Shown: piece after piece, positions 2,563 through 28,166 of the stretch
Layout: the number at the start of each line of letters is the position of its first letter
How positions within the stretch are numbered: position 1 is the stretch's first letter
Assembly (NCBI GenBank): GCA_027451985.1
Contig: DAIDHS010000010.1
Location: 196-64,195 of the forward strand
Direction: 5' to 3'
DNA length: 64,000 nucleotides
DNA from: Elusimicrobiota bacterium
Lineage (GTDB): Bacteria > Elusimicrobiota > Elusimicrobia > UBA1565 > UBA9628
The notes under the pieces: generated by a model
Seen by the model: the letters and a program-made list of their open reading frames with translations, nothing else
Told to the model about the DNA's origin: nothing
The model's database searches: none
Program-made: the position numbers and the translations under genes

Positions 2563-2576
2563 GGCTAAAGCGTTGC
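2563..2576 (+). promoter_or_regulatory. Sigma-54-like -24/-12 element upstream of dsrE-tusA-sqr
   Basis: GG CTAAAGC GTTGC followed by an AT-rich tract, about 45 nt before the ATG at 2620; same motif recurs upstream of other units. Confidence 0.5.
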
Positions 2577-2619
2577 ATAAATAAAAAGGCGTATGCCGGA
2601 TTCCGAATGCGGAGGTGCT

Positions 2620-3024
2620 ATGGCGGAGAAATTCTCAGTCATCATGTTCAGCGGAACGGCCGATAAATTCATCCCGCTGGGAGTCTTGACGCAGGCAGCG
2701 GCGGCCATGGAGATGGAGGTCAGCGTCTTTGTAACGGGTTTCGCTTTGGGGGCTTTCGCAAAAAAACACATGGAGCCTCCGTTTCCCGCCGAATTCGCGG
2801 CCATGGCCCCGGCGTTGGCAAAAGGGCTCAAGGCGGCCAAGGTTCCTTCTTGGGAGGAAATGCTGCGCCAAGCGAAGGATCTGGGCGCCAAGGTTTATGC
2901 CTGCTCCATGATGAGCGAGGTCATGGGGCTGAAGAAGAGCGATTTCAGCGACTTGGTCGATGATGTGGTGGGGGCCGCCACATTTTTGGAGAAGGCTGAA
3001 AACGGGCAAACCATCTTTATCTGA
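2620..3024 (+). CDS. DsrE/DsrF/DrsH-like (DsrE2-type) sulfur-carrier protein
   Basis: FSGTADK, VYACSMMSEVMGL, DDVVGAATFL motifs; GGAGGT RBS before ATG 2620. Confidence 0.85.
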   Translation: MAEKFSVIMFSGTADKFIPLGVLTQAAAAMEMEVSVFVTGFALGAFAKKHMEPPFPAEFAAMAPALAKGLKAAKVPSWEEMLRQAKDLGAKVYACSMMSEVMGLKKSDFSDLVDDVVGAATFLEKAENGQTIFI

Positions 3025-3027
3025 GCT

Positions 3028-3273
3028 ATGGACGCCGGAGCAACGCGCCGCAGGGTGGTCGACGCCAGAGATAAGTCTTGCCCCGGGCCGATCACGGACT
3101 TGGCTTTGGCCTATAGGCGCTCCAAGATCGGCGACGTTATAGAGCTGTGGGCGACTGATCCGGGCGTGCGGGCCGACGTGCGCGCCTGGGCCGCCAAAAC
3201 GGGAAACGAACTTGTTTCCCTGGAAGACAAAAGCGGCGCCATCGTGAGCGTGTTGCGTATACTAAGGAGATGA
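3028..3273 (+). CDS. tusA: TusA-family sulfurtransferase
   Basis: 81 aa with DARDKSCPGP (CPxP) and ATDPG...DVRAWA motifs. Confidence 0.9.
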   Translation: MDAGATRRRVVDARDKSCPGPITDLALAYRRSKIGDVIELWATDPGVRADVRAWAAKTGNELVSLEDKSGAIVSVLRILRR

Positions 3274-3274
3274 T

Positions 3275-4474
3275 ATGGGCGGTGTGCTGATTCTGGGCGG
3301 CGGCACGGGCGGAACGTTGCTCGCCAACATGCTCGCGCGCCGCGGCATTGAGATTACCGTGGTCAGCGAGTCGCCGGAGCACCTCTTCCAGCCGGCCCTC
3401 CTCTACATCGCCCTGGCCGGCGCTGGCGCGGACATCGTCCGGGACGAGCGCGCTCTGCTCGCCAAGCGCGTTCGGTTCGCACGGGAGCGGATTGTGCGGG
3501 TGAATCTCGCCGCCCATCGGGCAGAGGCCGCCTCCGGGGCTCGTTTCGATTATGACTCCTTGGTTGTGGCTACCGGTGCGCGGGCGGAACCGGCGCAGAT
3601 CCCCGGCCTAGCAGAAATCGCGGAGCGCTACGGCAACTACCACTCCGGAATAACCGCGGCGCAAAAACTTTGGAAGGCCCTCGACTCCTTTCGCGGCGGC
3701 ACCGTGGCCGTGGGTCAGGCTTCTCCGATCTGCGTGTGCCCGCCGTCGCCGGTCGAGGGCGTTCTGCTCATCGACAAGCTTCTGCGCCGAAGGTGGCTTA
3801 GAAGCAAGTCTCGCCTGATTTTCTTCACACCTTTTCCGCGCACATATCCGGCCGAACCGATTAATGAAATTGTGGAACCGCTTCTCAAAGCCCGCGGCAT
3901 TGAAGTTAAGACTTTTTTCGACGTGGACCGCGTGGAACCGGCGTCCCGCACCATTTTTTCCATCGAGGGCGAGCGCATCGACTGCGACCTGCCCATCATC
4001 GTTCCGCCCGTTTGCGGCGCGGACGTCGCTTACGAGCCGGACGGCGCGCTCAACGCCGATCGTTTCATCGCAGTCGACAAGAAGACGCTGCGCATCAAGG
4101 ATACAGACTCCGCCTACGCCATCGGCGATGCCACGGATCTGCCGACCTCGAAGGCCGGCGCGGGCGCCCATCTTCAGGCGAAGACGGTTTTCAGGGAGCT
4201 GATGGGGGAGCCGGCGGAATTCAACGGCCGCACGCATTGCGCCTTCGATCTCGGAAACGGCACGGGAACTTTCGTCATCAGCTCCTACTCCGCTCCGGCC
4301 GTGCGGTACCCACCGACGCGCATCAAGCGCCTCATGAAGATGCTTATGGGCCGCGTTTACTGGCTGAGCCTCAGCGGGCTTTTCGAGACGATTTTCAACT
4401 GGTACTTTTCCTGGACCGCGCCTGAGCGTCTCGCGGCGCGTTGGCCTAGGTTTTGGAGGCGCGCAAATCGATGA
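3275..4474 (+). CDS. sqr: Sulfide:quinone oxidoreductase-like FAD disulfide oxidoreductase
   Basis: GGGTGG FAD motif, HLFQPALLY, YDSLVVATG, CPPSPVE (Cys1), AIGDATDLPTSKAG, GRTHC (Cys2). Confidence 0.75.
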   Translation: MGGVLILGGGTGGTLLANMLARRGIEITVVSESPEHLFQPALLYIALAGAGADIVRDERALLAKRVRFARERIVRVNLAAHRAEAASGARFDYDSLVVATGARAEPAQIPGLAEIAERYGNYHSGITAAQKLWKALDSFRGGTVAVGQASPICVCPPSPVEGVLLIDKLLRRRWLRSKSRLIFFTPFPRTYPAEPINEIVEPLLKARGIEVKTFFDVDRVEPASRTIFSIEGERIDCDLPIIVPPVCGADVAYEPDGALNADRFIAVDKKTLRIKDTDSAYAIGDATDLPTSKAGAGAHLQAKTVFRELMGEPAEFNGRTHCAFDLGNGTGTFVISSYSAPAVRYPPTRIKRLMKMLMGRVYWLSLSGLFETIFNWYFSWTAPERLAARWPRFWRRANR

Positions 4475-5726
4475 TGCGCCGCAGCTTGCCCGTGCGGGGG
4501 TTGGTTTCCAGTTCTCCGGGCGCGCGCCACTCCACCCGAAGCGGGTGGATTTTGTCTTCCCCAACGAAGCGCCGCAGCATGGGCTGGCGGATGTGGAGGG
4601 CTTGGACGATGCGGCGTTCGAGCGGTTTCCTTTCTTTCGGCGGGACGCGGGCGGCGACGCGCAGGGCTAATCCGTCTTTGCCGCCGCGGTGTTCCATGAC
4701 CATCTGCAGCTGGATGGGGCCTGACCGTGGCAGGGACTCCCTGACCGTCTTGAAGGCCTCATCGAAGCCCACGGACAGGGAGGCGACGCGGGCAGAGTCT
4801 TCCGAGCGTCCAAGAAGCCGGTACTTGCGGTTGGACGCTCCTTTAGGCTCAATCCACATCGCCCGATCGCCCACGGGATAGCGGATAATCGGCATCAACC
4901 GCCGCGTTAGGGAGGTGACGAACGCGAGCCCCTCGCGGCCGGGCTCGGCAAGGGGATCACCCGTCTTTTCGTCCAAGATTTCATAGACGGAATGCCCATC
5001 GCAAGAGCGAAACTCGTTGGGCCCGCAGCCGGGGTCCGCGTAACCCAGCATTCCCGCGTCGTTGCTCGCGTAGCCGATGGAGCGGATGCGGGCTTTAGGG
5101 AAGGCCGCATGGGCCTGAAGGCGCTGATCGGGTTGCATGGGTTCGCCCGCAAAAAGGATGAGCCTTATCTTGGGCAGGCAAAGCCCGCGAGTTTTGAGGA
5201 GTCCGGCCAGGGCCGAGATCGTGCTCGGCAGCCCCGCGAGCACGCTAGCTTCGTGCTCTTTGAGGAGGGAAATCGTGTCGGGCGGCGGCGTCGTGCCCGT
5301 GATGGGCAGTTGGAGCGTACGCACGGGGCATTCCTCAAGCACTTTGTGGGTGAAGAGGAACGAGCCGTAGAGGGCCCCTGAATAGAAGAGGTTTGCGACA
5401 CGATCGCCGTTCCGAAGACCGCTCAAGGCCAGCTTGCGGGCGAAGTAGGCGGAAAATTCGTTCCATTCGTCGCGGGAGAAGACGGAAAATTTCGGCTTTC
5501 CGGTCGTCCCGCCGCTGCGCAGCAGAATGCCGTCCCTGATGGGTCCGGTCAGGAGCCGGTTGCCGCGGTAGGAATTGGCCCGCCAGAAGTTTTCTTGGCG
5601 TACGGCGGGGAGGGACACAAGCGAATCGATTTTTTGCGGAAGGCCGCGGTAAAGTTGGCGGTAAAACGGGGAGCGCTTGCGCGCGAAGGCGATGAGCGCC
5701 GCAGCGGTCTTGCCTGGGTGTGCCAT
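4446..5726 (-). CDS. PaaK-like adenylate-forming ligase (leupeptin-type ligase candidate)
   Basis: SGGTTGKPK P-loop, AGEP, GYASNDAG, PIIRYPVGD, LLGRSED, TGKLRRIIDLR. Confidence 0.85.
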   Translation of the reverse strand: MAHPGKTAAALIAFARKRSPFYRQLYRGLPQKIDSLVSLPAVRQENFWRANSYRGNRLLTGPIRDGILLRSGGTTGKPKFSVFSRDEWNEFSAYFARKLALSGLRNGDRVANLFYSGALYGSFLFTHKVLEECPVRTLQLPITGTTPPPDTISLLKEHEASVLAGLPSTISALAGLLKTRGLCLPKIRLILFAGEPMQPDQRLQAHAAFPKARIRSIGYASNDAGMLGYADPGCGPNEFRSCDGHSVYEILDEKTGDPLAEPGREGLAFVTSLTRRLMPIIRYPVGDRAMWIEPKGASNRKYRLLGRSEDSARVASLSVGFDEAFKTVRESLPRSGPIQLQMVMEHRGGKDGLALRVAARVPPKERKPLERRIVQALHIRQPMLRRFVGEDKIHPLRVEWRAPGELETNPRTGKLRRIIDLRASKT

Positions 5727-8248
5727 CAGCGTTTGCGCTCGTCGATCACGCGCAGCAGTTTTCCGCTGGCGGCACTGCGCTTAAAGCCGGCGCCGGGCGT
5801 TTCTTCGGCGCCAAAAAGCAGGGTCTTATCATTCAAGACTACTTCCGCCAGATCTCTGTAATGCTCGAGGCAGGACTTCACGCACTGGGCGGCGCTCAGG
5901 CCGGCGCCCTTGGAGACGCGCAGCAGAATTTTTTCTCGGCGGTTTTCCTCGCGCAGACAGATTTGCAGCTCTCCCGCGTACCCGGCGTGGGTCGAAAGGA
6001 TTTGCGCGAATTTCTGGTAGTTGAAGAAGGCCGTCCCGATTCGAAAAATGTCACCGACGCGGCCCAGGAGCTTGAAGCGGGGGGAAAGCCGCCCGCAGGG
6101 ACAGGGTTCTCCGGGCTTGCCCAGCACCCAATGGCCCATGTCGCCGATGGCGTAGCGCGGAGGCTTGCCGGACCCGGGCTCGCGCGGCGAGAACACCAAG
6201 CGCCCGACTTCTTCGCCCGAGACCGGACGGTCCTCATCGAGTTTTAGGATCTCAAGATGATGGAGTCTTTGCTGCAAATGGTGCACGCCGTCGGCGCAGC
6301 GCCCGCACTGGAATCCCATTGGGCCGATGTCAACGCTGCCGTAGGCCGCGGAGCGGATGAGGCCTACGCCGAAGCGCTCCATCAGGCGCCGCCGCTGGGC
6401 TTCGGTGAAGTGCTCGCCGCCGTAGAAAATCTTCGCTACGCCGCGGTAGCGCCCGAGCAGCGCGGCGTTCTCCTCGAAGAGATTCATGAGGTAGGAAGGC
6501 ATGCCCAGAAGCGCGTTGACCTTGTAATCGACGATGGCCTGCGCGACCATCTTGAGATCTTGATGGGCGGCCATGGGAAACTGGGCAACGCGCAGCCGCT
6601 CCAAGGCGGAAAAGATGCTGATGAAGCCCCCATAAAGCCCGCCGCAAAAGAACAGGTTCATGACACGATCCTTCTCCGGGTCGAGTCCGGCGGCGTAGAG
6701 CCCTTGCGCCCCGAAGAGCATGTCATCGTCGTATTGGTCGTAGGTGAAGGTCGAAAGCTTGGGCTTGCCAGTGCTGCCTCCACTCTTGAAGAACAGTCGC
6801 GCTTGCGGATTCTCAGAGGAAAACTTTTCCTTGGCAGTAATCTTGGGGAGAGACGGCCAGGGCGGAGGCGGGTAAAGGGTCAGCTCGTCGAAAGCGGAAA
6901 TGCCTCGGCTCGGTACGGGCGTCTGCGCAGAGACGCGGCGGCAATAGCGCTGCAAGGCATAGAGCCCGTCGTGGGGCTCGCCGGAGTAGCTGCCAGTCAT
7001 CGTGCCTAAGCGGCGCACTCGAGTCGCGCCGGCCGAAATCAGCCGCTGATTCAGCTCATAGACGTCCGCGGCGCCGCAAGCGAGGCCGACGGTCTGCAAA
7101 TAGGCTTTCATCGGGCGCAGGACCCGGACGATGTCTTGCCGCGGCAATGGCTTGACCCAAACGGTGCGGTAAAGCGGCGAGGGCGTCAGCGCGGGCCGGG
7201 CATCGGCCAGGACGCGCCAAGCGCCGTCTTGAGCGGCAAGGACCCGGGCCTTTCCGAGGCAGGACTCCAGCTCCTGGCACTGCGCGACCATGCTGATTTC
7301 GGCCGCGGCCGCGTCGTCTGGCGCAAGGCGCGGCATGGTCTTGGAGACGCGGGCCAAAGTCCCGGCTAAATTCTCGGCCAACCGATTTGCGGCGCCCCAT
7401 TCTGCCGCATCGACATAGACGCATTGCGGACTGGAGCAGGAGAGCTGCTCCAGACGGCAGCACTCTCTCGCTACCTCGTCAAGCGTTTCGGAACGGGAAG
7501 CGGACTCTTTAGAAAGGTAGATGAAGGAAATGCGGTGTCCCCACTCGACGATGCGCGCGCTTGCGGGCGCCATTGTCCGGATGGAGGCGATGGCGCTCTC
7601 GCCGCCCCATGCCGCGATGCCGTCGGCGGCGGCAAAAACTTTGGACAGCAGGTCCCGCCGCTTCGACGGGATGCACGCGGCAATGAGATAGTTGTTGAGG
7701 GCGCCCGAGGAGTCGTTGCGCGCAAGAGCCTCCAGCAGGATTTGCGCGAAGCCGCAGTCGTCCGCTCCGGTTTTGACGAAATTGACGTTTCCCGACAGCA
7801 GCCCTTCGACCGCGCTCATGGCTCCGGTAGCGAAGGAGTTTTGCGGCGAGACGTGGACTAGGAGCCCCAGCGGCGCCCAGGCCTCGAAGAGATCGTCCTG
7901 GTAGGAGACGCGATTGAGCAGGAAAGGGCGCTTGGATCCCAGTTCGCGCTTCAGTTTGGCTTCGAGCGCCTCGCGTCCCAACATACCCGCGATTTCGGAC
8001 AAGGCTGGCGCGATGTCCGTCCGGCGCGCCGCGCCGGACATCAGGAGCGTTTCTTCCAGCCGCCGGCGCAGCGGGGAGCGTTTGTCTAAAAGGGCCAGCG
8101 CCGTTTTGCCGCACGCGTCTAAGACCGCGGCGGTCGCCGCGGGTTCCGAGGGGATTGAGAGCGCGCCCAGGGCGGCGACGCGCTTTTCCAGTTCCTCGTC
8201 GTTGATCCACTCGCCGCGCCAAAAGTGGGGCTTCATGCCGCGCGTCAT
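5726..8248 (-). CDS. Fusion of LuxC-type acyl-protein/acyl-CoA reductase and PaaK-like ligase
   Basis: N-half: WAPLGLLVHV, AWGGESA, EWGHRISF, EQLSCSSPQ (catalytic Cys), HDGLYALQR. C-half: SGGSTGKPK, YGGEH, YGSVD, RYAIGD, SGKLLRVIDER. Start at ATG 8248 overlapping the luxE-like stop. Confidence 0.85.
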   Translation of the reverse strand: MTRGMKPHFWRGEWINDEELEKRVAALGALSIPSEPAATAAVLDACGKTALALLDKRSPLRRRLEETLLMSGAARRTDIAPALSEIAGMLGREALEAKLKRELGSKRPFLLNRVSYQDDLFEAWAPLGLLVHVSPQNSFATGAMSAVEGLLSGNVNFVKTGADDCGFAQILLEALARNDSSGALNNYLIAACIPSKRRDLLSKVFAAADGIAAWGGESAIASIRTMAPASARIVEWGHRISFIYLSKESASRSETLDEVARECCRLEQLSCSSPQCVYVDAAEWGAANRLAENLAGTLARVSKTMPRLAPDDAAAAEISMVAQCQELESCLGKARVLAAQDGAWRVLADARPALTPSPLYRTVWVKPLPRQDIVRVLRPMKAYLQTVGLACGAADVYELNQRLISAGATRVRRLGTMTGSYSGEPHDGLYALQRYCRRVSAQTPVPSRGISAFDELTLYPPPPWPSLPKITAKEKFSSENPQARLFFKSGGSTGKPKLSTFTYDQYDDDMLFGAQGLYAAGLDPEKDRVMNLFFCGGLYGGFISIFSALERLRVAQFPMAAHQDLKMVAQAIVDYKVNALLGMPSYLMNLFEENAALLGRYRGVAKIFYGGEHFTEAQRRRLMERFGVGLIRSAAYGSVDIGPMGFQCGRCADGVHHLQQRLHHLEILKLDEDRPVSGEEVGRLVFSPREPGSGKPPRYAIGDMGHWVLGKPGEPCPCGRLSPRFKLLGRVGDIFRIGTAFFNYQKFAQILSTHAGYAGELQICLREENRREKILLRVSKGAGLSAAQCVKSCLEHYRDLAEVVLNDKTLLFGAEETPGAGFKRSAASGKLLRVIDERKR

Positions 8249-9414
8249 CGTCCGGATCCCAAAAGTTCGGCGGCCGCCAGCGCGCAGCTTTTGTTCTTGG
8301 ATGTGCCGGCGCGTCCATGCACGACGAAGTACGGGCTCGTGATGCCGCAGCCGCATCCGGCGCCGGGATGGAGGGAAGCCAAGTCGCCCATCAGGACGCT
8401 GTGCGCAGGGATGGAGGTGAGAAACGGGGTCAAGAATTGCAGGAAGCCCGGCTTGCCCATGCCCAAGGGCTCCAAGCTTCGCACGTCACGGATGACGGCC
8501 TGCGACCAGACGGGGACGTGAAAATGGTGTCGGGAGCATTCCGCGTAGGGGATTGGGTGCTCGACCGCGCCAAAGCTGTCGCGGATGCGGGCTTGCGGGA
8601 TACCTAAAAGCTCTTCCGTAAGGGCATAGAGCTCCTCCTTGGGCACGGCCTCATCGGCGTGGCCCTTCCATCCGCCGCCCAGGAACGCAAGAGACTTGGG
8701 AGAAAGGCGGAGGCCTTTGATTTTAAGATCGCGCATGCGCTTTAAGGTGAAGAACAGAAAAGCGGGAAATCCAAAAATGCGCACCGGTAGTCCTTGGGCC
8801 TCGTAGTGCTGCAGGCTGCGGATGCAGCCGAAGACGTCGAACTCGTGCGACCCCGTCCCGGTCCGACGCAGCGCGTGGAAGACGCCCTTGACCGGAGCGT
8901 ACTTGCAGAGATAGTTGTCGGTGTAGGCGGTGCCTAGGGATGATTCGAGCTCGGTTTCATAGCTGTAGAGCAGATAGTTCGTCTTGGTTTCAGGCGCCAC
9001 GAAGCCGAAATACTCGAAGACCCGGTCGACCATGCGCTGCCCTGCTGAGAACGACCAGCGGTCGAAGAATATCTGGGATTTCTGTCCGGTGGTACCCGAA
9101 GACGTGAAATGCGCGAAAACTTCGCCTCTTGGGATGGAAAGGAGCTCGTGCGTCTTGAAGATATTCGCGGGAATGAAGGGAAGGCGGGCGCAATCCGCAA
9201 GGGTTCGGACCGAGCCCGGAGCGAACCCGCGCAGCTTGAGGAGGCGGCGATAAAACTCGGAGCGCTTCGCGTGCCAGCGCGCGCACTCGCTCATGGCTTT
9301 GGCGAAAAGCTCTCCGTGGCCGGCCGCAAACGAATAGGGGTCGGCCAAGTCCGCGACGGCCTGCACCGCCGCGAGCGCTTTGGGATCGGGAACGCGGGGC
9401 TGCGCGGGTTTCAC
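8245..9414 (-). CDS. LuxE-type acyl-protein synthetase / ligase
   Basis: LPFIPANIFK, TSSGTTGQKS, FGFPAF, GGGWKGH, DSFGAVEH, VLMGD, GRAG...KSCA. GTG start at 9414 overlapping the MFS stop. Confidence 0.85.
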   Translation of the reverse strand: MKPAQPRVPDPKALAAVQAVADLADPYSFAAGHGELFAKAMSECARWHAKRSEFYRRLLKLRGFAPGSVRTLADCARLPFIPANIFKTHELLSIPRGEVFAHFTSSGTTGQKSQIFFDRWSFSAGQRMVDRVFEYFGFVAPETKTNYLLYSYETELESSLGTAYTDNYLCKYAPVKGVFHALRRTGTGSHEFDVFGCIRSLQHYEAQGLPVRIFGFPAFLFFTLKRMRDLKIKGLRLSPKSLAFLGGGWKGHADEAVPKEELYALTEELLGIPQARIRDSFGAVEHPIPYAECSRHHFHVPVWSQAVIRDVRSLEPLGMGKPGFLQFLTPFLTSIPAHSVLMGDLASLHPGAGCGCGITSPYFVVHGRAGTSKNKSCALAAAELLGSGR

Positions 9415-14446: not shown

Positions 14447-14899
14447 TCACCTCGCGGACGAATTCTCTGGCGGCAAATGTCCTAGCGTGGGACTCGCAAC
14501 GTTTTTTCCGGCATCCGCGCCATTCTGCGCCCGATCGGCGGGGCCTTCCCGGCTGGAGTTAAAATCTTCGTGTCCCTGCAGCCGACGGTGCGAGAGATAT
14601 GCGGTCAAGCCGCCGATAAAAACAAGGCACGACGCCCAGGCGATAGGCCCCGCGCTCGCGATGACGACGGCATAAAGGATAACGCCCGCGCCCGAGGTCG
14701 CGGCCAGTCCTCCGATGTCCCGCGCCCGTTCAAGCCGTTTGGTTTCTTCCGGCGTAAGCCACGGAACCGTCACGACCAAGGGGGCGAGTTCGGTTTCCGT
14801 AGCCGTTGAGAGGGGAACTTCCGGAGCTGTTTTTGGATGGGTTTGGCTCCAAGAGGGCGAAACTAATGCGAGCGAGAGGGCGGCGGCTATAATATTCAT
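14447..14899 (-). CDS. Hypothetical exported/membrane protein
   Basis: Signal-like N-terminus MNIIAAALSLALV and two Gly/Ala-rich hydrophobic helices. Confidence 0.55.
   Translation of the reverse strand: MNIIAAALSLALVSPSWSQTHPKTAPEVPLSTATETELAPLVVTVPWLTPEETKRLERARDIGGLAATSGAGVILYAVVIASAGPIAWASCLVFIGGLTAYLSHRRLQGHEDFNSSREGPADRAQNGADAGKNVASPTLGHLPPENSSAR
14496..14509 (-). promoter_or_regulatory. Sigma-54-like element upstream of the ADH gene
   Basis: Minus strand GG AAAAAAC GTTGC about 55 nt before ATG 14441. Confidence 0.4.
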
Positions 14900-14924: not shown

Positions 14925-14955
14925 GCATCGTTTCGGCCATGGGCAGAAGCGTTGC
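14925..14955. promoter_or_regulatory. Back-to-back sigma-54-like elements
   Basis: Minus strand TGG CCGAAAC GATGC (14939-14925); plus strand GG CAGAAGC GTTGC (14942-14955) followed by TTTAAAAATA. Confidence 0.5.
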
Positions 14956-16122: not shown

Positions 16123-16158
16123 GCAACGCGATTGCCAAACGGTGGGATTTTCTGTTGC
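16123..16158. promoter_or_regulatory. Back-to-back sigma-54-like elements
   Basis: Minus strand TTGGCAATCGCGTTGCT (best consensus match in the window); plus strand GG ATTTTCT GTTGC (16145-16158). Confidence 0.6.
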
Positions 16159-16774: not shown

Positions 16775-18157
16775 TCAAAGCGCGAAGGTTTGACCGATCG
16801 TCGGCGCCTTGCTTTCGGTGCGCGCCAAGCGCGGAGCCAGGGCGTTCATGGCTTTTTCCTCGCCGTGCACCAGAAAGGTGAGTTCCGCGCGGGTCCGGGC
16901 GTGCCAAGCCAATAGCTCGGCCCGATCGGCGTGGGCGGAAAAGCCGCCGATGGTGTGGATGTGCGCCCGGACCGGGATTTCCTCTCCGAATAAGCGGACG
17001 GTCTTGGCCCCATCGATGATGCGCCGCGCAGGAGTTCCCTGGGCGGCGTAACCCACGAAAACAACGCCGCACTCCGGCCTTGCGAGGTTGTTCCTGAGAT
17101 GATGGCGCACCCGTCCGCCCGTGCACATCCCGGAGCCCGCCATAATGACGGCTCCGCTGCGAATCTCGTTGATGGCCTTGGACTCGGCGGCTTCCCGGCA
17201 GAAGCGCAGGTGGGGGAGTTGGAACGGATCTTTGCCTTCCTTAAACATGGCGCGAGTCGCTTCCCCGTAGCATTCGGGGTGACTCTGGAAAATGCGCGTC
17301 GCGGAAATGGCCATGGGGGAGTCGAGAAATACGTGGCGCAACTCGGGCAAGCGGCCTTGTTCGACGCCCTCGCGGAGGAAATAGAGGAGCTCTTGCGCGC
17401 GCTCTAACGCGAACGTCGGAATGATGACGTTGCCGCCGCGACTAAATGTCGCGCTGATGGCTTCGTAGAGCTCGGCTACGGATGAATCGAGGGACCTGTG
17501 GCGCCGGTCTCCGTAGGTCGTCTCCATGACCACCGCGTCGGCTAGCCCAGCTTCGGGCGCGCGCAGGAGAGGTCGTCCAGCGTTGCCCAGATCGCCGGAG
17601 AACAAGACGCGCCGGGACTTTCCTTTCTCCTTTAGTTCCAGTAGGACGCAAGCCGAGCCCAGGATGTGGCCGGCGTCGATGAAGGTGGCCCTAATTCCGG
17701 GCGCCAGATCAAGCGCGCGGCCATAGGCCGCTACGCGGCCAAAATAATCGAGACTGTTGAGGGCATCAAGGGTTTGATAAAGCGGGAGCGGATGGCCGGG
17801 ACCACCGCTTTTTGCAGTTTTGCCCATGCGGTAAAGGGCCTCCTCTTCCTGCAAGTGGGCGGCGTCGAGCAGGACGATTTTAGCCAGCTCCCGGGAGGCT
17901 GCGGTGGTGATGACTTCCCCGCGGAAGCCCCTTTTGACCAGAAGCGGCAGGCGTCCGCAGTGATCAAGATGGCTGTGGGTGAGAAGGAGAAAATCAACGG
18001 CGGCCGGATCGAAGCCGAAAGGCTCGGCGTTCTCCTGCTCAAGCTCGCGGCTTCCTTGGTACATGCCGCAGTCCACGAGCACGCGTTTGCCCGCGCACTC
18101 GATCATATGGCAGGAGCCCGTGACTCCGCAGTCCGCGCCGTGAAAGGAGATGTTCAT
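16775..18157 (-). CDS. MBL-fold beta-CASP metallo-hydrolase (RNA-processing family)
   Basis: GADCGVTGSC, THSHLDHCG, AGHILGS, FSGDLG, METTYGDR, FSAHAD, LVHGE. Confidence 0.92.
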   Translation of the reverse strand: MNISFHGADCGVTGSCHMIECAGKRVLVDCGMYQGSRELEQENAEPFGFDPAAVDFLLLTHSHLDHCGRLPLLVKRGFRGEVITTAASRELAKIVLLDAAHLQEEEALYRMGKTAKSGGPGHPLPLYQTLDALNSLDYFGRVAAYGRALDLAPGIRATFIDAGHILGSACVLLELKEKGKSRRVLFSGDLGNAGRPLLRAPEAGLADAVVMETTYGDRRHRSLDSSVAELYEAISATFSRGGNVIIPTFALERAQELLYFLREGVEQGRLPELRHVFLDSPMAISATRIFQSHPECYGEATRAMFKEGKDPFQLPHLRFCREAAESKAINEIRSGAVIMAGSGMCTGGRVRHHLRNNLARPECGVVFVGYAAQGTPARRIIDGAKTVRLFGEEIPVRAHIHTIGGFSAHADRAELLAWHARTRAELTFLVHGEEKAMNALAPRLARTESKAPTIGQTFAL

Positions 18158-18189
18158 AGTGTTTGGCAACTCCGTTTCTTAAATGTACA

Positions 18190-18228
18190 GCAACGGTTAG
18201 GCCAAAATATAAACGGCAAAATTGTTGC
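18190..18228. promoter_or_regulatory. Back-to-back sigma-54-like elements for the MBL gene and cydAB
   Basis: Minus strand TTGG CCTAACC GTTGCT (18203-18190); plus strand GG CAAAATT GTTGC (18215-18228). Confidence 0.55.
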
Positions 18229-18286: not shown

Positions 18287-19711
18287 ATGCACTTCAATGT
18301 CGTGGCGCTCTCCCGCCTGCAATTCGCGCTCACGGTCATGTTCCATTATCTGTTTCCGCCGCTCTCCATCGGTCTCGGCGCGCTCATGGTTATTATGGAG
18401 GGGGCTTACCACTGGACGGGGGACAAGGAGTGGGAAACGCTGGCGCGCTTCTGGACCAAGATTTTCGCGGCCAACTTCGCCATGGGCGTGGCCAGCGGCA
18501 TCGTCATGGAGTTCGAGTTCGGTACGAATTGGGCGACCTACTCGCGCTTCGTGGGCGACATTTTCGGCTCGGCTCTTGCCGCGGAGGGAATTTTCGCGTT
18601 CTTCCTGGAATCGGGATTTTTGTCCGTACTCGTCTTCGGCTGGGACCGGGTTTCCAAGCGCATGCACTTTGTGTCGACCTGCCTGGTCGCCTTGGGCGCC
18701 TTATTTTCGGCCGTCTGGATCATCGTAGCCAACTCCTGGCAGCAGACTCCTGCCGGCTACGTCCTAGTCTCGCACAATGGAATTATGCGAGCCCAAATCA
18801 CCAATTTTTGGGCCGTGGTGTTTAATCCCTCGAGCGTGCAGCGCTTGGTACACACTGTTTTGGGCGCCTATATGATGGGTGCTGCCTTCGTGGCCAGCGT
18901 GTCCGCCTATTACGTGCTCAAAGGACGGCACGGCTCTTTGGCGCGCAAGTCTTTGGCTTTGTCCGTCATTTTCGGCGCGCTCGCGGCTTTCGCAATACCT
19001 GTTTCTGGCGATTCCCAGGCGCGCGAGGTCGCGCGCTACCAGCCGGCCAAGCTGGCCGCCTTCGAAGGGCTTTATAAGACCCAAGCAGACGCCTCTCTGA
19101 CCCTCTTTGGAATTCCTGACGACGCCCGCCAGGAACTGCGCGCGGCCGTGGGCGTACCGGGCCTCTTGAGCTTTCTGGTGCATGGAAAGACGAGCGCGCC
19201 CGTGACAGGCCTTGACGCTTTCGCAGCCGACGACCGCCCTCCGGTCGCAGCCTGCTACATCCTGTTCCACGCGATGGTCGTGCTGGGAATTGTGTTGGCC
19301 GCATTATTCGGTTTTTCCTTGTGGCGCCTGCGCGGCGGCAAACTCTATGAGGATAAGTGGCTGCTTAAGGGGCTGATAGGCTCCGTCCTTCTCGCGCTCC
19401 TGGCCAACCAGATCGGCTGGTGCGCGGCGGAAGTCGGGCGCCAGCCCTGGATTGTTTACGGGTTGTTGCGCACCAAGGACGCCGTCTCGCAGGCGGTGCC
19501 GGCCAATGATGTGCTCACCTCCATTATTCTTTTCTCCATCATTTACGCTATGCTCGCCGCAGTCTGGCTCTACATCATCGATGAAAAAATAAAGAGAGGG
19601 CCGGAGGAAGAACCCGGGGCGCAGTCACATGAGCGCGGCTGGCTTCAAGCCGCGGGCCAGCTGGCCAACCCTTCCGGCGGGAAGCTCTCGGAGGGCGAGG
19701 AGCGGGCCTGA
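18287..19711 (+). CDS. cydA: Cytochrome bd ubiquinol oxidase subunit I
   Basis: [36 protein letters not shown]. Confidence 0.96.
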
Positions 19712-20727
19712 TGGATTTGCGCGTTCTGTGGTTCGTGCTGCTGGGCGTCCTGCTCTCAGGCTACGCCATTTTGGACGGCTTCGATTTGGGCGTAGGCATC
19801 CTTCATTTGGGGGCGCGCAATGATGAGGAGCGGCGCATCTTCCTCAACTCCATCGGCCCTTTGTGGGACGGCAACGAGGTCTGGCTGGTGACTTTCGGCG
19901 GTGCGCTTTTCGCCGCTTTTCCGGACGCCTACGCAACGGCGTTCTCGGCGTTCTATCTCGCCTTTATGCTTCTGCTCTTCGCGCTCATCTTTCGCGCGGT
20001 GTCCATGGAGTTCCGCAGCAAGCGCGAGTGGGCGTGGTGGCGCCGCGGCTGGGACGTCGCGTTTTCGGCCGCCAGCTTTGTCGCGGCGCTTCTTTTTGGG
20101 ATGGCCGTGGGCGACTCCATGCTGGGCATCCCAATCGGTGCCAACCATGAGTATGCCGGAGGTTTTTTCAACCTGCTTAGGCCCTACGCTCTCTTGGTCG
20201 GCGCACTCAACGTTTCTCTGTTCGCTCTTCACGGAGCCATCTACCTTAACATGAAGACCCACGGCGAACTGCAGCGCCGCGTGCGCCGCTGGATGTGGCA
20301 CGCCTTTGGGATTTTTCTGACGCTTTATATGTTCACGACCATCGTCACGCTCGCGGAGGTGCCGCGCGCGCTGGGGAATTTTCAGCGGATGCCCTGGCTT
20401 TGGGCGCTGGTCGGCGTTAACGTTCTTGCTTTGGCCAACATTCCACGCTCGCTATTTCTGCGCCGGCCGGGGCAGGCTTTCGCGTCCTCGGCCGCGGCCA
20501 TCGCGGCGCTTATCGCGCTTTTCGGCGCCGCGCTCTACCCCAATCTCATCGCTTCAAGCCTCAATCCGGCCTGGAGCCTGACGGTCGCCAATGCTTCCTC
20601 CTCGGCCAAGACGCTACGCATCATGGCGATCATCGCGGCCTGCGGCATGCCCTTCGTGCTGTCCTACACCGCGGTGATTTATTGGATTTTCCGCGGCAAA
20701 GTCGAATTGGGTAAGCTCAGCTACTAG
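19711..20727 (+). CDS. cydB: Cytochrome bd ubiquinol oxidase subunit II
   Basis: LDGFDLGVG, GPLWDGNEVWL; coupled to cydA. Confidence 0.96.
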   Translation: MDLRVLWFVLLGVLLSGYAILDGFDLGVGILHLGARNDEERRIFLNSIGPLWDGNEVWLVTFGGALFAAFPDAYATAFSAFYLAFMLLLFALIFRAVSMEFRSKREWAWWRRGWDVAFSAASFVAALLFGMAVGDSMLGIPIGANHEYAGGFFNLLRPYALLVGALNVSLFALHGAIYLNMKTHGELQRRVRRWMWHAFGIFLTLYMFTTIVTLAEVPRALGNFQRMPWLWALVGVNVLALANIPRSLFLRRPGQAFASSAAAIAALIALFGAALYPNLIASSLNPAWSLTVANASSSAKTLRIMAIIAACGMPFVLSYTAVIYWIFRGKVELGKLSY

Positions 20728-20821: not shown

Positions 20822-21323
20822 ATCGCGGGCTTCTGCTACTTCAACAACCTCGCCGTCGCTTGCGAGAAGATGATTAAAGAGAAAAAGATCGGGCGCGCAG
20901 CCATTCTGGACGTCGACGTCCAGAATGGCGACGGGACCGAGGATATTTTTCCGGGCGGCCCGGAATTATTTACGCCTGCTGCACCAAGCGCCCCTTTATC
21001 GAGGTACGGGTCTCGTTTTTCGTGGCAACTGTCTTAATTTTCCTCTTCCGCAAGGAGCCAAGGAAGCGCGGGATTTGGAGATTTTAGAAGGCGTTATTGA
21101 GCATCTTTTAGACGCCAAACCCGATATCTTAGCGGTGTCGGCGGGCTTCGATACCTATAAAGAGTGTTCCATCGCGGGTCTGGAGCTTGAGAAAAAATCT
21201 TACCGACGCATCGGCACCCTGATCGGGCAAACCGGTCTTCGGCGTTTCGCGGTCCTTGAGGGGGGATATGCCGCTGATTCGCCGATTCTAATCGAGAATT
21301 TTTTAGACGGATTTCTGGTTTAA
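20822..21323 (+). pseudogene. Histone deacetylase-family remnant, 5'-truncated and frameshifted
   Basis: One frame reads IAGFCYFNNLAVA...AILDVDVQNGDGTEDIF; another reads LHQAPLYRGTG...VSAGFDTYK...VLEGGY. The N-terminus is missing and the Zn-binding DxHH is altered. Confidence 0.8.
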
Positions 21324-21349
21324 GTCCGCGAATCTTGCGCCGCCTGCGG

Positions 21350-21365
21350 TGGCGGCAGTGTTGCA
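21350..21365 (+). promoter_or_regulatory. Sigma-54-like element upstream of glgP
   Basis: TGGCGGCAGTGTTGCA followed by TTTATTAAAA. Confidence 0.55.
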
Positions 21366-21399
21366 TTTATTAAAAATGGAGGTCTCGGCGCCTCCGCTT

Positions 21400-23910: not shown

Positions 23911-23930
23911 CGAGGTGCCGGCACACTTGA

Positions 23931-23945
23931 TGGACGCAGTGTTGC
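23931..23945 (+). promoter_or_regulatory. Sigma-54-like element upstream of hemerythrin-korAB unit
   Basis: TGG ACGCAGT GTTGC, about 30 nt before ATG 23976. Confidence 0.5.
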
Positions 23946-23975
23946 GCCATATACTTGAAGAGAGTTGAGGCGGCT

Positions 23976-24506
23976 ATGGACATGATTGACGGTTTCGTGG
24001 AAAAGCACGGAGAAATCCGCCGCCTGATGGAGGTGCTGGCCCGGTGCCTCCCTGCCGACTCCTCCGGAGAGGAGGAATTTCAGCCGGAAATGCTCCATAA
24101 ATTCAAGGAGACGGCGGAACTTCTCAGCGTCAAGCTGCAAGCGCACGAAGCTCTTGAGCGGCGATTTTTGGCCGTAGCCGCAAAAGAGATGGGACCGGAC
24201 GGAACGCCTTGCTTGTCCGTGGTCGATGAAGATCATGCGGCCATCAACGACATCATCCATATCCTGGAATCGATTTGCTGCTTGGCCGGGAATGCCCGCG
24301 CCTATTCTTTCCGCTTCTCCGTCTCCAGCCTTTCCTATCGGCTCGAGAGGCATCTGAACTATGAAGAGAAAGAGGTTTTTCCATGCGTGAGGCGTTTGCT
24401 CAACCCGGCGCGTATGGCGGAGGTGGAGCGGGCGGCGGGAGTCTCGCAGCGAATGGAGCCAAGGAGGGAACCATGGGCGAAATGGAAGATGCCGTCAGGA
24501 AAATAG
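23976..24506 (+). CDS. Hemerythrin/HHE cation-binding domain protein
   Basis: H...HEALE...DH...HLNYEEKEVFP pattern. Confidence 0.75.
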   Translation: MDMIDGFVEKHGEIRRLMEVLARCLPADSSGEEEFQPEMLHKFKETAELLSVKLQAHEALERRFLAVAAKEMGPDGTPCLSVVDEDHAAINDIIHILESICCLAGNARAYSFRFSVSSLSYRLERHLNYEEKEVFPCVRRLLNPARMAEVERAAGVSQRMEPRREPWAKWKMPSGK

Positions 24507-24811: not shown

Positions 24812-24819
24812 GGGGAATT

Positions 24820-26571
24820 ATGAGCGGGATTGCGGAAGCGGGCACGAAAGCGGCGTCATTCAGGCTTTGGATCGGAGGCGCGGCCGGCGACGGCATCGCG
24901 GCCGCCGGGCAAAGCTACATTAAAGCGTGCGCCCGCTCCGGCCTTCAGGTCTACGCCTATAATTCTTACGAGTCCGTCATTCGGGGCGGACATGTCCTGT
25001 TCATGGCAGAGGCCGGCACGCAAAAGCCCTGTCTCCAATCCTCCTCCTGCGACATCCTCATTGCCTTGAACCAGGAGACCATCGACCGAGAAGGACCGCG
25101 GGCGGGAAAAGGAGTGCTCTTCAACAGCGACAGGCTGCGCGTCGATTCGAGCCGGCTTCAATCGGGCGCGCGCGCCCTCGGCCTTCCCTGCGGCCAGCTT
25201 GCTCAAAATCCGCTCATGCAGAACTCCGCGGCCCTGGGGGCTGCGGCATTTCTTGCGGGTCTTGATATGGATGTCCTTGCGGAGTTGCTGCGCGAGACTT
25301 TCAAGAAAAAAACCACGGCCGTCATCGAAGGCAATATCTTGGCGGCACGCGCGGGACATGGCTACGCTGTGGCGCATTTCGGCGATTCTGCGGTCCCGGT
25401 ATCCGGAGACGGCAAGCGGCGCATGGTTTTGAGCGGCAACGAAGCGATGGCCTTCGGAGCCGTGGCCGCCGGCTGCAAGTTCTTCTCGGCCTACCCGATG
25501 ACGCCGGCGTCTTCCATCATGCATTGGCTGGCGCCCCGCGCTGCGGCCTACAGCATGGTCTTCAAGCAGACGGAAGACGAGATCGCGGCGATCAATATGG
25601 CCATTGGCGCTTCCGTGGCCGGCGTTCGAGCCATGACCGCGACTTCGGGCGGCGGCTTCGCCCTCATGACTGAAGGCTTGGGGCTTTCCGGTATGATCGA
25701 GGCGCCGCTCGTGGTGGTCGAGGTTCAGCGCGGCGGTCCCTCGACCGGACTTCCCACTCGTTCGGAGCAGGGTGATTTGTTCCAGATCCTGGGAGCGAGC
25801 CAGGGAGATTATCCGAAAATCATTTTGGCTCCCACCGGTGTGGAGGATGCTTTCTATACGATGGGCGAGGCCTTCAACTTGGCGGAGCGTTTCCAACTGC
25901 CGGTGGTGGTTCTCTCGGACCTCATTTTAGCCGAGCACCGCGAGACGGTCGATGATTTGAACGCCGCTTTGCCTATAGACCGCGGCGTGTGGGCTCAGAA
26001 TTCGGGGTCCGGGCAGGATGGTTTTAAGCGCTATGCCGTTACTTCCAATGGAGTTTCACCGCGCGCGGCGCCGGGGCAGGCGGGCTTCATCCACGTTGCC
26101 GCCTCGGACGAACATGATGAAGAGGGGCGGCTCATCTCGGACGTTCATCCGGACCCGGCGATGAGGAAAGCCATGATGGACAAACGCATGCGCAAACTCG
26201 ATTCTGCGGCCGAGGCCTTGAGGCCGGAGGTTCTGGAGGGCCCTGCGGACGCGGATTTGACCCTAGTTTCCTGGGGTTCATCGTGCGGCGCGGCTCGGCA
26301 TGTCATGCGTTGCTTGAACGAAGGCCGCAAGACGCGGGTCAATTTCCTGCCCATCCGCAACCTTCATCCCTTTCGGAGCGAAGAGGTGCTCGCGATACTC
26401 AAGCGCGCCAAGCGGGTTATGGCCATTGAAGAGAACTATACGGCGCAGCTTTGCCGCCTCATCCGGATGGAAACCGGCTTTGACATCGTTAGGCGCTGGC
26501 TCAAATACGACGGCGATCCTTTCGATCCGGAGGCGTCGGTGCGCCGCGCAGAGGAGGCCCTCCATGACTAG
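24820..26571 (+). CDS. korA: 2-oxoacid:ferredoxin oxidoreductase alpha subunit (gamma-alpha fusion)
   Basis: IGGAAGDG, YESVIRGG, AYPMTPAS, EDEIAA, TSGGGFALM, QRGGPSTGLPT. Confidence 0.92.
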   Translation: MSGIAEAGTKAASFRLWIGGAAGDGIAAAGQSYIKACARSGLQVYAYNSYESVIRGGHVLFMAEAGTQKPCLQSSSCDILIALNQETIDREGPRAGKGVLFNSDRLRVDSSRLQSGARALGLPCGQLAQNPLMQNSAALGAAAFLAGLDMDVLAELLRETFKKKTTAVIEGNILAARAGHGYAVAHFGDSAVPVSGDGKRRMVLSGNEAMAFGAVAAGCKFFSAYPMTPASSIMHWLAPRAAAYSMVFKQTEDEIAAINMAIGASVAGVRAMTATSGGGFALMTEGLGLSGMIEAPLVVVEVQRGGPSTGLPTRSEQGDLFQILGASQGDYPKIILAPTGVEDAFYTMGEAFNLAERFQLPVVVLSDLILAEHRETVDDLNAALPIDRGVWAQNSGSGQDGFKRYAVTSNGVSPRAAPGQAGFIHVAASDEHDEEGRLISDVHPDPAMRKAMMDKRMRKLDSAAEALRPEVLEGPADADLTLVSWGSSCGAARHVMRCLNEGRKTRVNFLPIRNLHPFRSEEVLAILKRAKRVMAIEENYTAQLCRLIRMETGFDIVRRWLKYDGDPFDPEASVRRAEEALHD

Positions 26572-27454
26572 TCCAAGCCCGGCCGCCGTGAAAGCGGAGG
26601 ATTTTCGCTCGGAGACCAAGCCGGATTGGTGCCCGTCTTGCGGGAACTTCGGCGTGCTCAACGCCGTGGAAAAGGCCTGTGCAGCCCTGGGTCTGGCCAA
26701 CAAGGACGTGCTCTGCGTCTCGGGCATCGGTTGCTCCTCGAATCTGCCGGGATTTCTCAAAGCTTACGGCCTCCACGGAATCCACGGCAGGGCGCTGCCG
26801 CTGGCGACCGGCGCCAAGTTGGCCAATCCGGCGCTGACGGTCATCGCGGTCGGGGGGGACGGGGACGGCTACGGCATCGGCATGGGGCATTTCATCCACG
26901 CCATGCGCCGCAACCTGAACTTGACTTATTTAGTGATGAATAACGAAATCTACGGTCTGACGACCGGCCAAGCATCTCCGACCACGATGAAGGGCACTAT
27001 GACCAAGTCCACACCCGAGGGTTGCATCGAAAATCCCATCAACCCCATCGCCCTGGCTCTGGCTGCGGGTGCGAGCTTCGTGGCGCGCGCCTTCTGCGGC
27101 GACATCGCGCACATGGCCTCTCTGGTGACCCAGGCGATTGAACATAAAGGATTTTCCCTGGTGGATTGCCTCTCCCCTTGCGTAACCTTCAACAAAGTGA
27201 ATACCTATCCGTGGTTCCGGCAACGGGTTTATAAGCTCGAAGATTCGGGCCACGACGCGTCGAACTTTTCCGCGGCCATGACCCGGGCGATGGAGAGCCC
27301 CGGGCGGTTTCCCATTGGAGTTTTCTATCGGTCCAGCGGCATCCGAGCCTACGAAGATCTGGATTCGACATTATCTCGCGGCACTACTCCGGCCGCGGCG
27401 AAGCTTTCTCTTAGCGGCAAAGCGAGCGAGGCGATTAAGGAATCTTTTCGGTAG
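26564..27454 (+). CDS. korB: 2-oxoacid:ferredoxin oxidoreductase beta subunit
   Basis: WCPSCGNFG, SGIGCSS, HGRALP, GDGDG...NN TPP motif, SPCVTFN. Confidence 0.92.
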   Translation: MTSPSPAAVKAEDFRSETKPDWCPSCGNFGVLNAVEKACAALGLANKDVLCVSGIGCSSNLPGFLKAYGLHGIHGRALPLATGAKLANPALTVIAVGGDGDGYGIGMGHFIHAMRRNLNLTYLVMNNEIYGLTTGQASPTTMKGTMTKSTPEGCIENPINPIALALAAGASFVARAFCGDIAHMASLVTQAIEHKGFSLVDCLSPCVTFNKVNTYPWFRQRVYKLEDSGHDASNFSAAMTRAMESPGRFPIGVFYRSSGIRAYEDLDSTLSRGTTPAAAKLSLSGKASEAIKESFR

Positions 27455-27465
27455 GCCTTAGGGCC

Positions 27466-27775
27466 ATGGCAGAAATCGGCTCCGCGATGCGGGAGATGGT
27501 TCTTGAGACTCCCGGGTGGCCTCTGCAAATGATGGGGATACCCGTGCCGGCAATCCGACCCGAGGACATCTTGATTCGCGTCGACGTCTGCGCCGTCTGC
27601 CGGAGCTGAGCTTCAGCTTATTTTCGGCCATCAGATCGTGAGTGTAGTGTTAGAGACGGGTAAAAGAGTCGCATGATTCAGAGTCGGAGATTGCGCGGGA
27701 GGTGCCTTGGTTGGGGAGGACCTGCGGAATGTGCGCTTATTGCTTGTTGGGCCGCGAGAATCTTTGGGATGCCTT
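27466..27775 (+). pseudogene. Degraded Zn-dependent alcohol dehydrogenase (AdhP-like)
   Basis: Manual translation: MREMVLETPG...ILIRVDVCAVCRS*, GHQIVSVV, FRVGD, VPWLGRTCGMCAYC..GRENL, with stops, frameshifts and no C-terminal domain. Confidence 0.8.
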
Positions 27776-27936
27776 AGGAATGGAAAAGTTTGAGGTGCGG
27801 CTAGAATCATGGCGGCGACGCCGGTCTCTTCGCGGGAAACGGACGTAGCCCTGCGACGCCTGGCCGTCGAGGCCGCCTGTGTTGAGGAGACTTCTGATTT
27901 TTCGCCATCGGATAATTCTGCGAAATTTTCGCTAAG

Positions 27937-27963
27937 GTGGCGGACGAAGAAGTCGTCCGCCAC
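27937..27963. repeat. Perfect 11-bp inverted repeat (hairpin)
   Basis: GTGGCGGACGA-AGAAG-TCGTCCGCCAC. Confidence 0.85.
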
Positions 27964-28140
27964 ATGGAGAAAAGCGCTTTACTAGGCGCGCGCAGCCACG
28001 CTGGCTGACATAGGGCGCCGTTTAATTATTTTCCAGCCATTCGTAGATTTGGAGTGGACGGGAATATCATGATAATAGCTCATGACGAAATCTCCATGGA
28101 CATTGCGTTTATCGCTATAAAATGCAACGTTCTGGTGCAA

Positions 28141-28166
28141 GGCAGTTTTGTTGCTATTGCTATAAT
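28141..28166 (+). promoter_or_regulatory. Adjacent sigma-54-like element and extended -10 upstream of the DUF2892-USP-OsmC-RND operon
   Basis: GG CAGTTTT GTTGC (28141-28154) and TG-C-TATAAT (28158-28166) in an AT-rich intergenic region. Confidence 0.55.

Follow-up and report, generated by a model that had tools for sequence, protein, structure and literature searches.

The window analysed here is a 64,000-nucleotide stretch from an Elusimicrobiota bacterium (contig DAIDHS010000010.1 of assembly GCA_027451985.1). Between 2.5 and 28.2 kb it carries transcription units such as dsrE-tusA-sqr, cydAB, glgP and hemerythrin-korAB, in front of which a short asymmetric element, GG-N7-GTTGC, recurs. An earlier note on this DNA had read the element as a sigma-54 (RpoN)-type promoter. 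Having followed it through the genome and the phylum, we consider it very probable that the motif is the −24/−12 promoter of a sigma-54-type holoenzyme containing one or both of two compact sigma-54 homologues, with a single activator that lacks a DNA-binding domain acting as the switch. The ten exact sites and the one GATGC variant that the note had listed were all recovered, each facing a start codon. They are given below with the genes behind them; scores are from a position weight matrix (PWM), and distances run from the C of the terminal GC to the likely start codon.

2563..2576, + strand: site GGCTAAAGCGTTGC, PWM 17.6; 44 nt before ATG 2620, with a Shine-Dalgarno sequence; the unit behind it comprises dsrE (2620-3024), tusA (3055-3273) and an SQR-like gene (3275-4474)
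14496..14509, − strand: site GGAAAAAACGTTGC, PWM 15.9; 55 nt before the start of a zinc alcohol dehydrogenase (Zn-ADH) gene (13413-14441, −); the site lies inside the 3′ end of the weak open reading frame (ORF) 14447-14899
14925..14938, − strand: variant site GGCCGAAACGATGC (GATGC); 25 nt before the ATG of the same ORF (14447-14899, −; 150 amino acids, aa), which has a signal-peptide-like N-terminus and no Pfam match; the weakest member, scoring 15.3 with the first PWM and <10 with the second
14942..14955, + strand: site GGCAGAAGCGTTGC, PWM 19.0; 35 nt before ATG 14990 of a gene running to 15616, with a lipoprotein-like product carrying a single CxxCH
16123..16136, − strand: site GGCAATCGCGTTGC, PWM 16.6; 41 nt before ATG 16082 of a gene for a small secreted protein (15630-16082, −)
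16145..16158, + strand: site GGATTTTCTGTTGC, PWM 15.5; 50 nt before a nitroreductase-family gene (16208-16642)
18190..18203, − strand: site GGCCTAACCGTTGC, PWM 19.2; 33 nt before a beta-CASP metallo-beta-lactamase (MBL) gene (16775-18157, −)
18215..18228, + strand: site GGCAAAATTGTTGC, PWM 13.7; 59 nt before cydA (18287-19711), which is followed by cydB (19711-20727)
21351..21364, + strand: site GGCGGCAGTGTTGC, PWM 16.0; 12 nt before ATG 21376 of the glucan phosphorylase gene glgP (to 23910)
23932..23945, + strand: site GGACGCAGTGTTGC, PWM 18.1; 31 nt before a hemerythrin gene (23976-24506), behind which lie a DUF4404 gene and the alpha and beta genes of a 2-oxoacid:ferredoxin oxidoreductase (24820-27454)
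28141..28154, + strand: site GGCAGTTTTGTTGC, PWM 18.7; 31 nt before GTG 28185 of a 46-aa membrane ORF, behind which lie a YgaP-like gene (28367-28561), a tandem universal stress protein (USP) gene (28589-29446) and genes for OsmC, OEP and an RND pump (to 34443)

Within the window the distances to the start codon range from 12 to 59 nt. The three back-to-back pairs (14925-14938/14942-14955, 16123-16136/16145-16158 and 18190-18203/18215-18228) are genuine, with 3, 8 and 11 nt, respectively, between their GG ends. As the earlier note had it, the motif is absent farther on: no intergenic site with a PWM score of at least 10 was found past 35 kb of the window. Most of the gene names proposed there were borne out by Pfam, which confirmed DsrE, TusA, the SQR-like flavoprotein, Zn-ADH, nitroreductase, beta-CASP MBL, CydA/B, glucan phosphorylase, hemerythrin, 2-oxoacid:ferredoxin oxidoreductase alpha/beta, YgaP-like (DUF2892), USP, OsmC, OEP and RND. 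The exception is the "cytochrome c", which has one CxxCH and a lipoprotein-like signal peptide but no Pfam match; the start assigned to it, 14939, lies upstream of its own motif, and ATG 14990 is the likely one.

Placement, spacing and consensus of the motif

What carries the signal is where the sites lie, not how many there are across the window, where GG-N7-GTTGC occurs 20 times against 13.08±3.70 in shuffled sequence (3 of 100 shuffles reach 20, which is not significant). Gene calling with a dicodon model on the whole genome (G000; 2,407,815 nt in 107 contigs, 62.6% GC) gave 2237 genes and 979 intergenic regions amounting to 143,577 nt, or 6% of the genome. This intergenic DNA holds 46 matches against 20.1±5.0 in 200 dinucleotide-preserving shuffles, the highest of which reached 37. 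The excess was sharper when the form was narrowed to GGC (25 versus 6.8) or to TGG (18 versus 3.6). Varying the spacer gave 12 matches versus 20.7 for N6, a depletion, and 31 versus 19.9 for N8; permuted cores were flat, and the generic GG-N8-TTGC was not enriched in intergenic DNA (116 versus 108.7). GG and GC stand exactly 10 nt apart, as in −24/−12 promoters.

The sites are also oriented. Thirty-five of 48 intergenic matches face a start codon no more than 250 nt away (against a null fraction of 0.43; p = 2.9e-5), and the bias persists outside the window (26/38, p = 0.0015). Among these 35 sites, C or A follows GG in 31, W occupies position 7 in 29 and a pyrimidine precedes GTTGC in 33, with T favoured before GG and W after GC. 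The consensus is t-GG-C/A-N5-Y-GTTGC-W, and the lineage-specific consensus suggested in the earlier note therefore holds. A second PWM was built from the 35 sites on a non-coding background. At a score of at least 13 it finds 36 intergenic matches in a padded scan against 4.3±1.8 in shuffles; when the genome was split without padding, 35 matches fell in the intergenic 6% and 37 in the coding 94%. For 36 of the best 37 sites (PWM at least 13.7) the next gene boundary is a start on the same strand, and ten of the 37 lie between 2.5 and 28.2 kb of the window, which is 1.1% of the genome.

The canonical sigma-54 consensus is TGGCAC-N5-TTGCW. The motif shares with canonical RpoN promoters the exact 10-nt distance between GG and GC, the T before GG, the C/A after it and the W after GC, as well as an oriented position just upstream of genes in a genome that encodes a sigma-54 homologue and an AAA+ activator. 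It differs in that a G is fixed and a Y nearly fixed before TTGC, while the CAC after GG is relaxed; the generic pattern is not enriched, and the sigma factor itself, about 360 aa long, is missed by the Pfam models for the activator-interacting and core-binding domains (AID and CBD). The −24/−12 form is given as TGG-N9-TGC in the passages of PMC7482065 that describe it.

Paired divergent sites across the genome are separated by 3, 8, 11, 8, 19, 26, 30 and 41 nt. Because the gaps vary so widely, each site is taken as a separate asymmetric unit and not one half of a palindrome, and a single palindromic operator at the divergent pairs was rejected. Reading GTTGCA as a sigma-70 −35 element was likewise rejected, as inspection by eye revealed no −10-like hexamer 16-18 nt downstream of the window sites.

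Distances to the start codon are bimodal genome-wide. Eight sites, including those of glgP, a CRP/FNR gene, a hybrid kinase, a USP and an OEP gene, lie 10-16 nt before the ATG and leave no room for a Shine-Dalgarno sequence; the remaining sites are at least 23 nt away, mostly with a GGAG-type Shine-Dalgarno, and a single site falls between (17 nt, with a Shine-Dalgarno). This is what a transcription start about 12 nt after the GC predicts, namely messages that are either leaderless or properly leadered. We infer from these distances that transcription would start about 12 nt downstream of the GC, and the glgP message is a candidate leaderless transcript.

Sigma-54-like proteins, an activator and a probable regulon

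The earlier note had found no rpoN and no enhancer-binding protein gene in the window and had made its reading depend on an rpoN elsewhere in the genome. A canonical rpoN is indeed missing, but a genome-wide Pfam Sigma54_DBD search gave two weak matches, both to divergent sigma-54 homologues outside the window. They are paralogous ORFs of about 360-370 aa, at G000:C17:29198-30310 and G000:C2:122097-123161, which match Sigma54_DBD (PF04552) at 51 and 48 bits (cut-off 22.8). Homologues are about 340-400 aa long, and those with a named source all come from Elusimicrobia/Elusimicrobiota, where they are called "hypothetical protein" or carry unrelated names. A 32-sequence alignment of the family contains an invariant RRTVNA block at the place occupied by the RpoN box in sigma-54. 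The family profile matches sigma-54 chains of the PDB (E 2.8e-6; profile positions 214-354 against chain residues 318-465) over the helix-turn-helix (HTH) and the RpoN box, with SRRTVNAVR opposite ARRTVAKYR.

The similarity extends beyond the DNA-binding part when structures are compared. An AlphaFold2 model of the sigma-54-like protein reached a predicted local distance difference test (pLDDT) of 84 and a predicted template-modelling score (pTM) of 0.79. Rows 1-30 of a Foldseek search with this model (28 chains shown, similar chains of one entry omitted) were all sigma-54, with a best E of 2.2e-8. VIA-align placed sigma-54 chains in its top 27 rows (Z 12.2, root-mean-square deviation 7.3 Å, 224 aligned residues), the alignment running from 14 to 356 of the model and from 11 to 469 of the chain, through the core-binding region. 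A conserved N-terminal helix, GRLRMADWIEMPE, lies opposite residues 8-20 of sigma-54 structures and has no PF00309 match. E. coli sigma-54 is longer than these proteins by about 100 aa; solved Aquifex sigma-54 chains of 316-398 aa are also among the structural matches. On the modelled fold, the sigma factor appears to be a compact, highly divergent sigma-54 of about 360 aa that databases leave unnamed.

The genome encodes one true bacterial enhancer-binding protein (bEBP), also outside the window, and it has no DNA-binding domain. This activator of 397 aa consists of a receiver, an AAA+ domain (Sigma54_activat, PF00158, 238 bits) with a GSFTGA loop of the GAFTGA type, and a lid ending at residue 395; four other PF00158 matches in the genome were rejected as Clp-type or Mg-chelatase ATPases. 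It fits the CtcC/FlgR type of bEBP, with receiver and AAA+ present and the C-terminal Fis-type HTH absent, and no HTH remnant was found downstream of the gene in any frame. Because the short form recurs at 99, 99, 92 and 90% identity (397 aa) in independent assemblies, it is not an assembly artefact. The bEBPs of seven relatives keep a tail of 136-171 aa, read by eye as a Fis-type HTH, and PF02954 is missing in 34 of the best 120 activator homologues. Upstream of the activator gene lies a gene for a PAS-PAS-PAS-HisKA-HATPase kinase, and both adjoin the second sigma-54-like gene, from which the activator gene is 2 kb away. A weaker site, GGCACGATCGTTTC (G000:C2:123212-123225, +, PWM 11.3), was seen 57 nt before the kinase-activator operon and suggests possible feedback on the activator itself.

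The notion of one regulon is supported, and the regulon is not confined to the window set: genome-wide it has about 35-40 promoters, of which the window holds roughly a quarter. The promoters are clustered in a few islands, and 2.5-28.2 kb of the window is the largest. Its content, taken as the first genes behind each site in this genome, comprises within the window dsrE-tusA-sqr, ADH, three small exported proteins, the nitroreductase, the beta-CASP nuclease, cydAB, glgP, hemerythrin-DUF4404-korAB and YgaP-USP-OsmC-OEP-RND. Elsewhere, sites precede the first sigma-54-like gene itself, in a divergent pair with an acetyl-CoA hydrolase/GNAT gene, and a YceI gene just downstream of the second sigma-54-like gene. 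Others serve genes for PPDK/PEP synthase, Hsp20, DnaJ, a second nitroreductase, ETF, a CBM48 protein, an NTP-transferase, three OEP proteins, a porin, two radical-SAM proteins and a ResB-like protein, as well as regulators of the CRP/FNR (C2:138019) and OmpR (C8:59723) types and two PAS kinases. All five tandem-USP genes of the genome are served by a site, one of them through the window operon. The units most likely encode a stress, low-oxygen and energy-conservation programme, to judge from their gene content, and low oxygen or sulfide may be the inducing signal. The comparison with DosR or Fnr regulons drawn in the earlier note stands up outside the window too, where tandem USPs, Hsp20 and nitroreductases accompany a set that also includes cydAB.

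Other features of the window were recorded alongside. A further near-match, GGCAACTCCGTTTC (18165-18178, +, PWM 12.9), lies 109 nt before cydA, within the 5′ region of the divergent MBL gene, and may be a second start or chance. ORF 20925-21323, directly upstream of the glgP promoter, matches a histone-deacetylase model at positions 195-285 of 298 only and looks like a truncated remnant. Between korB and the promoter at 28141, the interval 27466-27990 contains short ORFs in different frames that we take, by eye, to resemble pieces of a Zn alcohol dehydrogenase N-terminus (27466-27609 ends ...VDVCAVCRS); it is probably a decayed gene. In the region 4446-9414 (−), a gene for a LuxC-type acyl-CoA reductase with a fused AMP-binding domain is accompanied by genes for a LuxE-type acyl-protein synthetase and another AMP-binding protein; this fatty-aldehyde/alcohol-type cluster carries no motif site. 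No Rfam family reached its gathering score in positions 1-36000 of the window.

Distribution across the phylum

A survey of 151 genomes of the phylum, in which bEBPs were called at E ≤1e-30, found a sigma-54-like protein in 42 genomes (37 of 63 genera) and a true bEBP in 40; the genomes are related, and these counts overstate their independence. Both proteins occurred together in 39 genomes, the sigma-54-like protein without a bEBP in 3, a bEBP without it in 1 and neither in 108. Sigma54_DBD was detected in 45 genomes, at canonical strength in one only (G111, 171 bits). Of the 63 sigma-54-like copies, 35 have a bEBP gene no farther than 5 kb away, and many of these are directly adjacent to it. 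Two large families of small genomes (f4, 1/45; f12, 0/44) were seen to have no sigma-54 domain and, one exception aside, no bEBP.

The motif itself recurs at these loci. It precedes the sigma-54-like gene on the same strand in six genomes (G000, G150, G072, G148, G001 and G119, among 30 loci), and sites also stand beside the sigma/bEBP cassettes of G130, G119 and G150. G112 has a sigma of 34% identity and, near its gene, an island of sites of its own (G112:C5:60001-120000): within 45 kb of the sigma gene stand six oriented intergenic sites of the form TTGGCAAATTTGTTGCATAT (PWM 13-20) and two further sites that our ORF map assigns to coding DNA. These sites resemble the canonical consensus even more closely than those of the genome studied here, and the genes behind them are amtB, cbb3-type cytochrome genes, moaA, a GDT1-type transporter gene and two Rrf2 regulator genes. 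amtB is a classical sigma-54 target.

Within the genome studied here, contigs C35 (3157-12200) and C46 (1-9060) are about 80% identical over 9.1 kb; the region was either duplicated and has since diverged, or comes from a second, related population represented in the assembly. Both copies keep the motif, 15 nt before the start of an OEP gene, with one change (GTTGC versus ATTGC).

A proposed sigma-54 switch and its alternatives

Under the model proposed above, one or both sigma-54-like paralogues would read the motif as part of the holoenzyme, binding both core polymerase and the promoter. The PAS kinase, which may sense oxygen or redox state, would phosphorylate the receiver-AAA+ activator. 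The activator would then engage closed complexes of the sigma-54-like holoenzyme from solution and drive open-complex formation at every promoter, and transcription would depend on it. Since the activator has no DNA-binding domain, no upstream enhancer would be needed, which would explain how divergent promoters can leave no more than 3-11 nt between their −24 elements. A single switch would in this way command about 35-40 transcription units, and the site before the first sigma-54-like gene suggests positive feedback.

By gene content the system works like the DosR regulon, with which it shares USPs, alpha-crystallin Hsp20, nitroreductases, respiratory and energy-sparing genes and one sensor-kinase-driven switch, but it is not a member of that family. 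Mycobacterium DosR, driven by DosS/DosT, belongs to the NarL/LuxR-type DNA-binding regulators and works at sigma-70-type promoters; here, specificity would lie in the sigma factor, and the regulator lacks a DNA-binding domain. A mechanistic likeness is found in Chlamydia trachomatis, where the CtcB-CtcC-sigma-54 regulon has 28 promoters and 64 genes, according to the passages of PMC7482065 that deal with it. CtcC and Helicobacter FlgR are described as having no DNA-binding domain in the relevant passages of PMC3162934, and CtcC engages the holoenzyme from solution (PMC7482065; PMC3162934, in the parts that treat the activator). As far as those passages go, both systems pair a single sensor kinase with a single receiver-AAA+ activator that lacks a DNA-binding domain and with one sigma-54 regulon, of about 35-40 promoters in the present case. 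They differ in that the chlamydial sigma-54 is canonical and, by the same passages, its regulon serves developmental conversion and type III secretion, whereas here the sigma is divergent and duplicated, the targets concern stress, respiration and carbon storage, and many promoters stand back to back. Multiple RpoN paralogues with cognate activators occur in Cereibacter (Rhodobacter) sphaeroides, as set out in the portions of PMC11999139 on these paralogues. The present phylum resembles it, to the extent of those portions, in having more than one sigma-54 gene per genome, often with its own activator (as the copies beside a bEBP gene show); unlike there, the paralogues of this genome share one activator and their promoter specificities are not separable.

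Several observations weigh against the sigma-54 model. Chance alone would account for about 20 of the 46 exact intergenic matches, and any single low-scoring site (18215+, 16145+, 14509− and, most of all, 14938−) could therefore be spurious. The second PWM is partly circular, since its training sites are among those it scores, the gene calls come from our own dicodon caller with several starts corrected by eye, and the assembly, in its 107 contigs, has an estimated contamination of 3%. Conservation of targets is poor in the loci compared: no site scoring at least 10 was found at cydA of G072 and G092, which belong to the same order, or at the USP gene of G150, of the same family. Among metagenomic cydA loci (≤61% identity), 2 of 80 had a site scoring at least 12 in the 300 nt upstream against about 0.9 expected. 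A phylum-wide count of GGM-N5-YGTTGCWW against a reversed-pattern control gave no usable signal. That count is uninformative because families without sigma-54 (f12, f4) show an equal or larger excess; whole-genome motif counts are dominated by codon periodicity. On the protein side, neither sigma-54-like protein matched Sigma54_AID (PF00309) or Sigma54_CBD (PF04963) at E ≤0.01, and core binding rests on a predicted fold with a global template-modelling score of about 0.3, a low value that is expected for a multi-domain protein modelled off the polymerase. Finally, two sigma paralogues stand against one activator, and either or both of them may read the motif.

The most durable alternative, though an improbable one, is that the sigma-54-like proteins are former sigma factors that have become stand-alone regulators, binding the motif without contacting core polymerase or depending on an activator. 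Their short length and the fact that Pfam recognizes a DNA-binding domain but neither AID nor CBD would suit such a role. However, the structural alignment of the predicted fold with sigma-54 begins in region I and reaches the RpoN box (Z 12.2), and the matches include the solved Aquifex chains of 316-398 aa. The co-occurrence with bEBPs (both in 39 genomes, one of the two in 4, neither in 108) and the 35 of 63 copies beside a bEBP gene count against it as well, because an activator would have no role without a sigma-54.

Quite improbable, too, is the view that the motif is an operator of a conventional transcription factor, for instance of the CRP/FNR- or OmpR-family regulators in the gene set, that merely resembles a −24/−12 promoter. 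The CRP/FNR-type gene (C2:138019) and the OmpR-type gene (C8:59723) each carry a site and could autoregulate, and the three window pairs look like inverted repeats. Yet the site is asymmetric and keeps a strict orientation (36 of 37 face a start), the pair gaps of 3-41 nt are unfit for a dimer, the spacing is exactly GG-N10-GC with the N6 control depleted, and the site tracks sigma-54-like/bEBP cassettes in distant lineages. That AT-rich intergenic DNA produced the pattern by chance or through its composition, and that it was then picked out by eye, is hardly credible: the window-wide count is not significant (20 versus 13.08; 3/100 shuffles) and the first PWM, with 6+8 flank columns, drifted to AT-rich sequence on iteration, but dinucleotide-preserving intergenic shuffles never reach 46 (maximum 37, n = 200), the orientation bias holds outside the window (26/38, p = 0.0015), permuted cores are flat and all five tandem-USP genes are served by a site.

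Returning to the sigma-54 model, a broader scheme can be put forward tentatively. Environmental Elusimicrobiota may possess a compact sigma-54 clade, usually organized as a sigma/activator cassette, and in the present lineage the loss of the activator's DNA-binding domain may have turned the cassette into an enhancer-free, global, dormancy-like switch. It would act on about 40 promoters, about a fifth of them leaderless and many back to back, and at −24 elements just 3-11 nt apart the polymerases would compete or fire together.

The promoter class, the activator type and the logic of such a system are already known. In its passages on sigma factor counts, a 2011 survey (PMC3372290) gives the two genomes available for the phylum at that time as having no RpoN. 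Our literature searches on Elusimicrobia/Elusimicrobiota, which covered publications apart from their supplements, returned no description of sigma-54 in the phylum. Within the same scope, we found none of a compact unnamed sigma-54 clade, of the lineage-specific consensus, of DosR-like content under sigma-54 or of such dense divergent promoters. Annotations of Elusimicrobiota name many "sigma-54-dependent" activators. The proteins and consensus described here would supply the missing sigma factor of the phylum together with a promoter model, from which regulons there would become predictable. Tandem USPs, Hsp20, nitroreductases, cytochrome bd and glycogen breakdown under a sigma-54 switch would represent a second route to a dormancy-like programme, a similar set being under a DosR-type regulator in mycobacteria. 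The tightly packed divergent −24/−12 promoters, combined with an enhancer-free activator, would offer a test case for how sigma-54 closed complexes share DNA.

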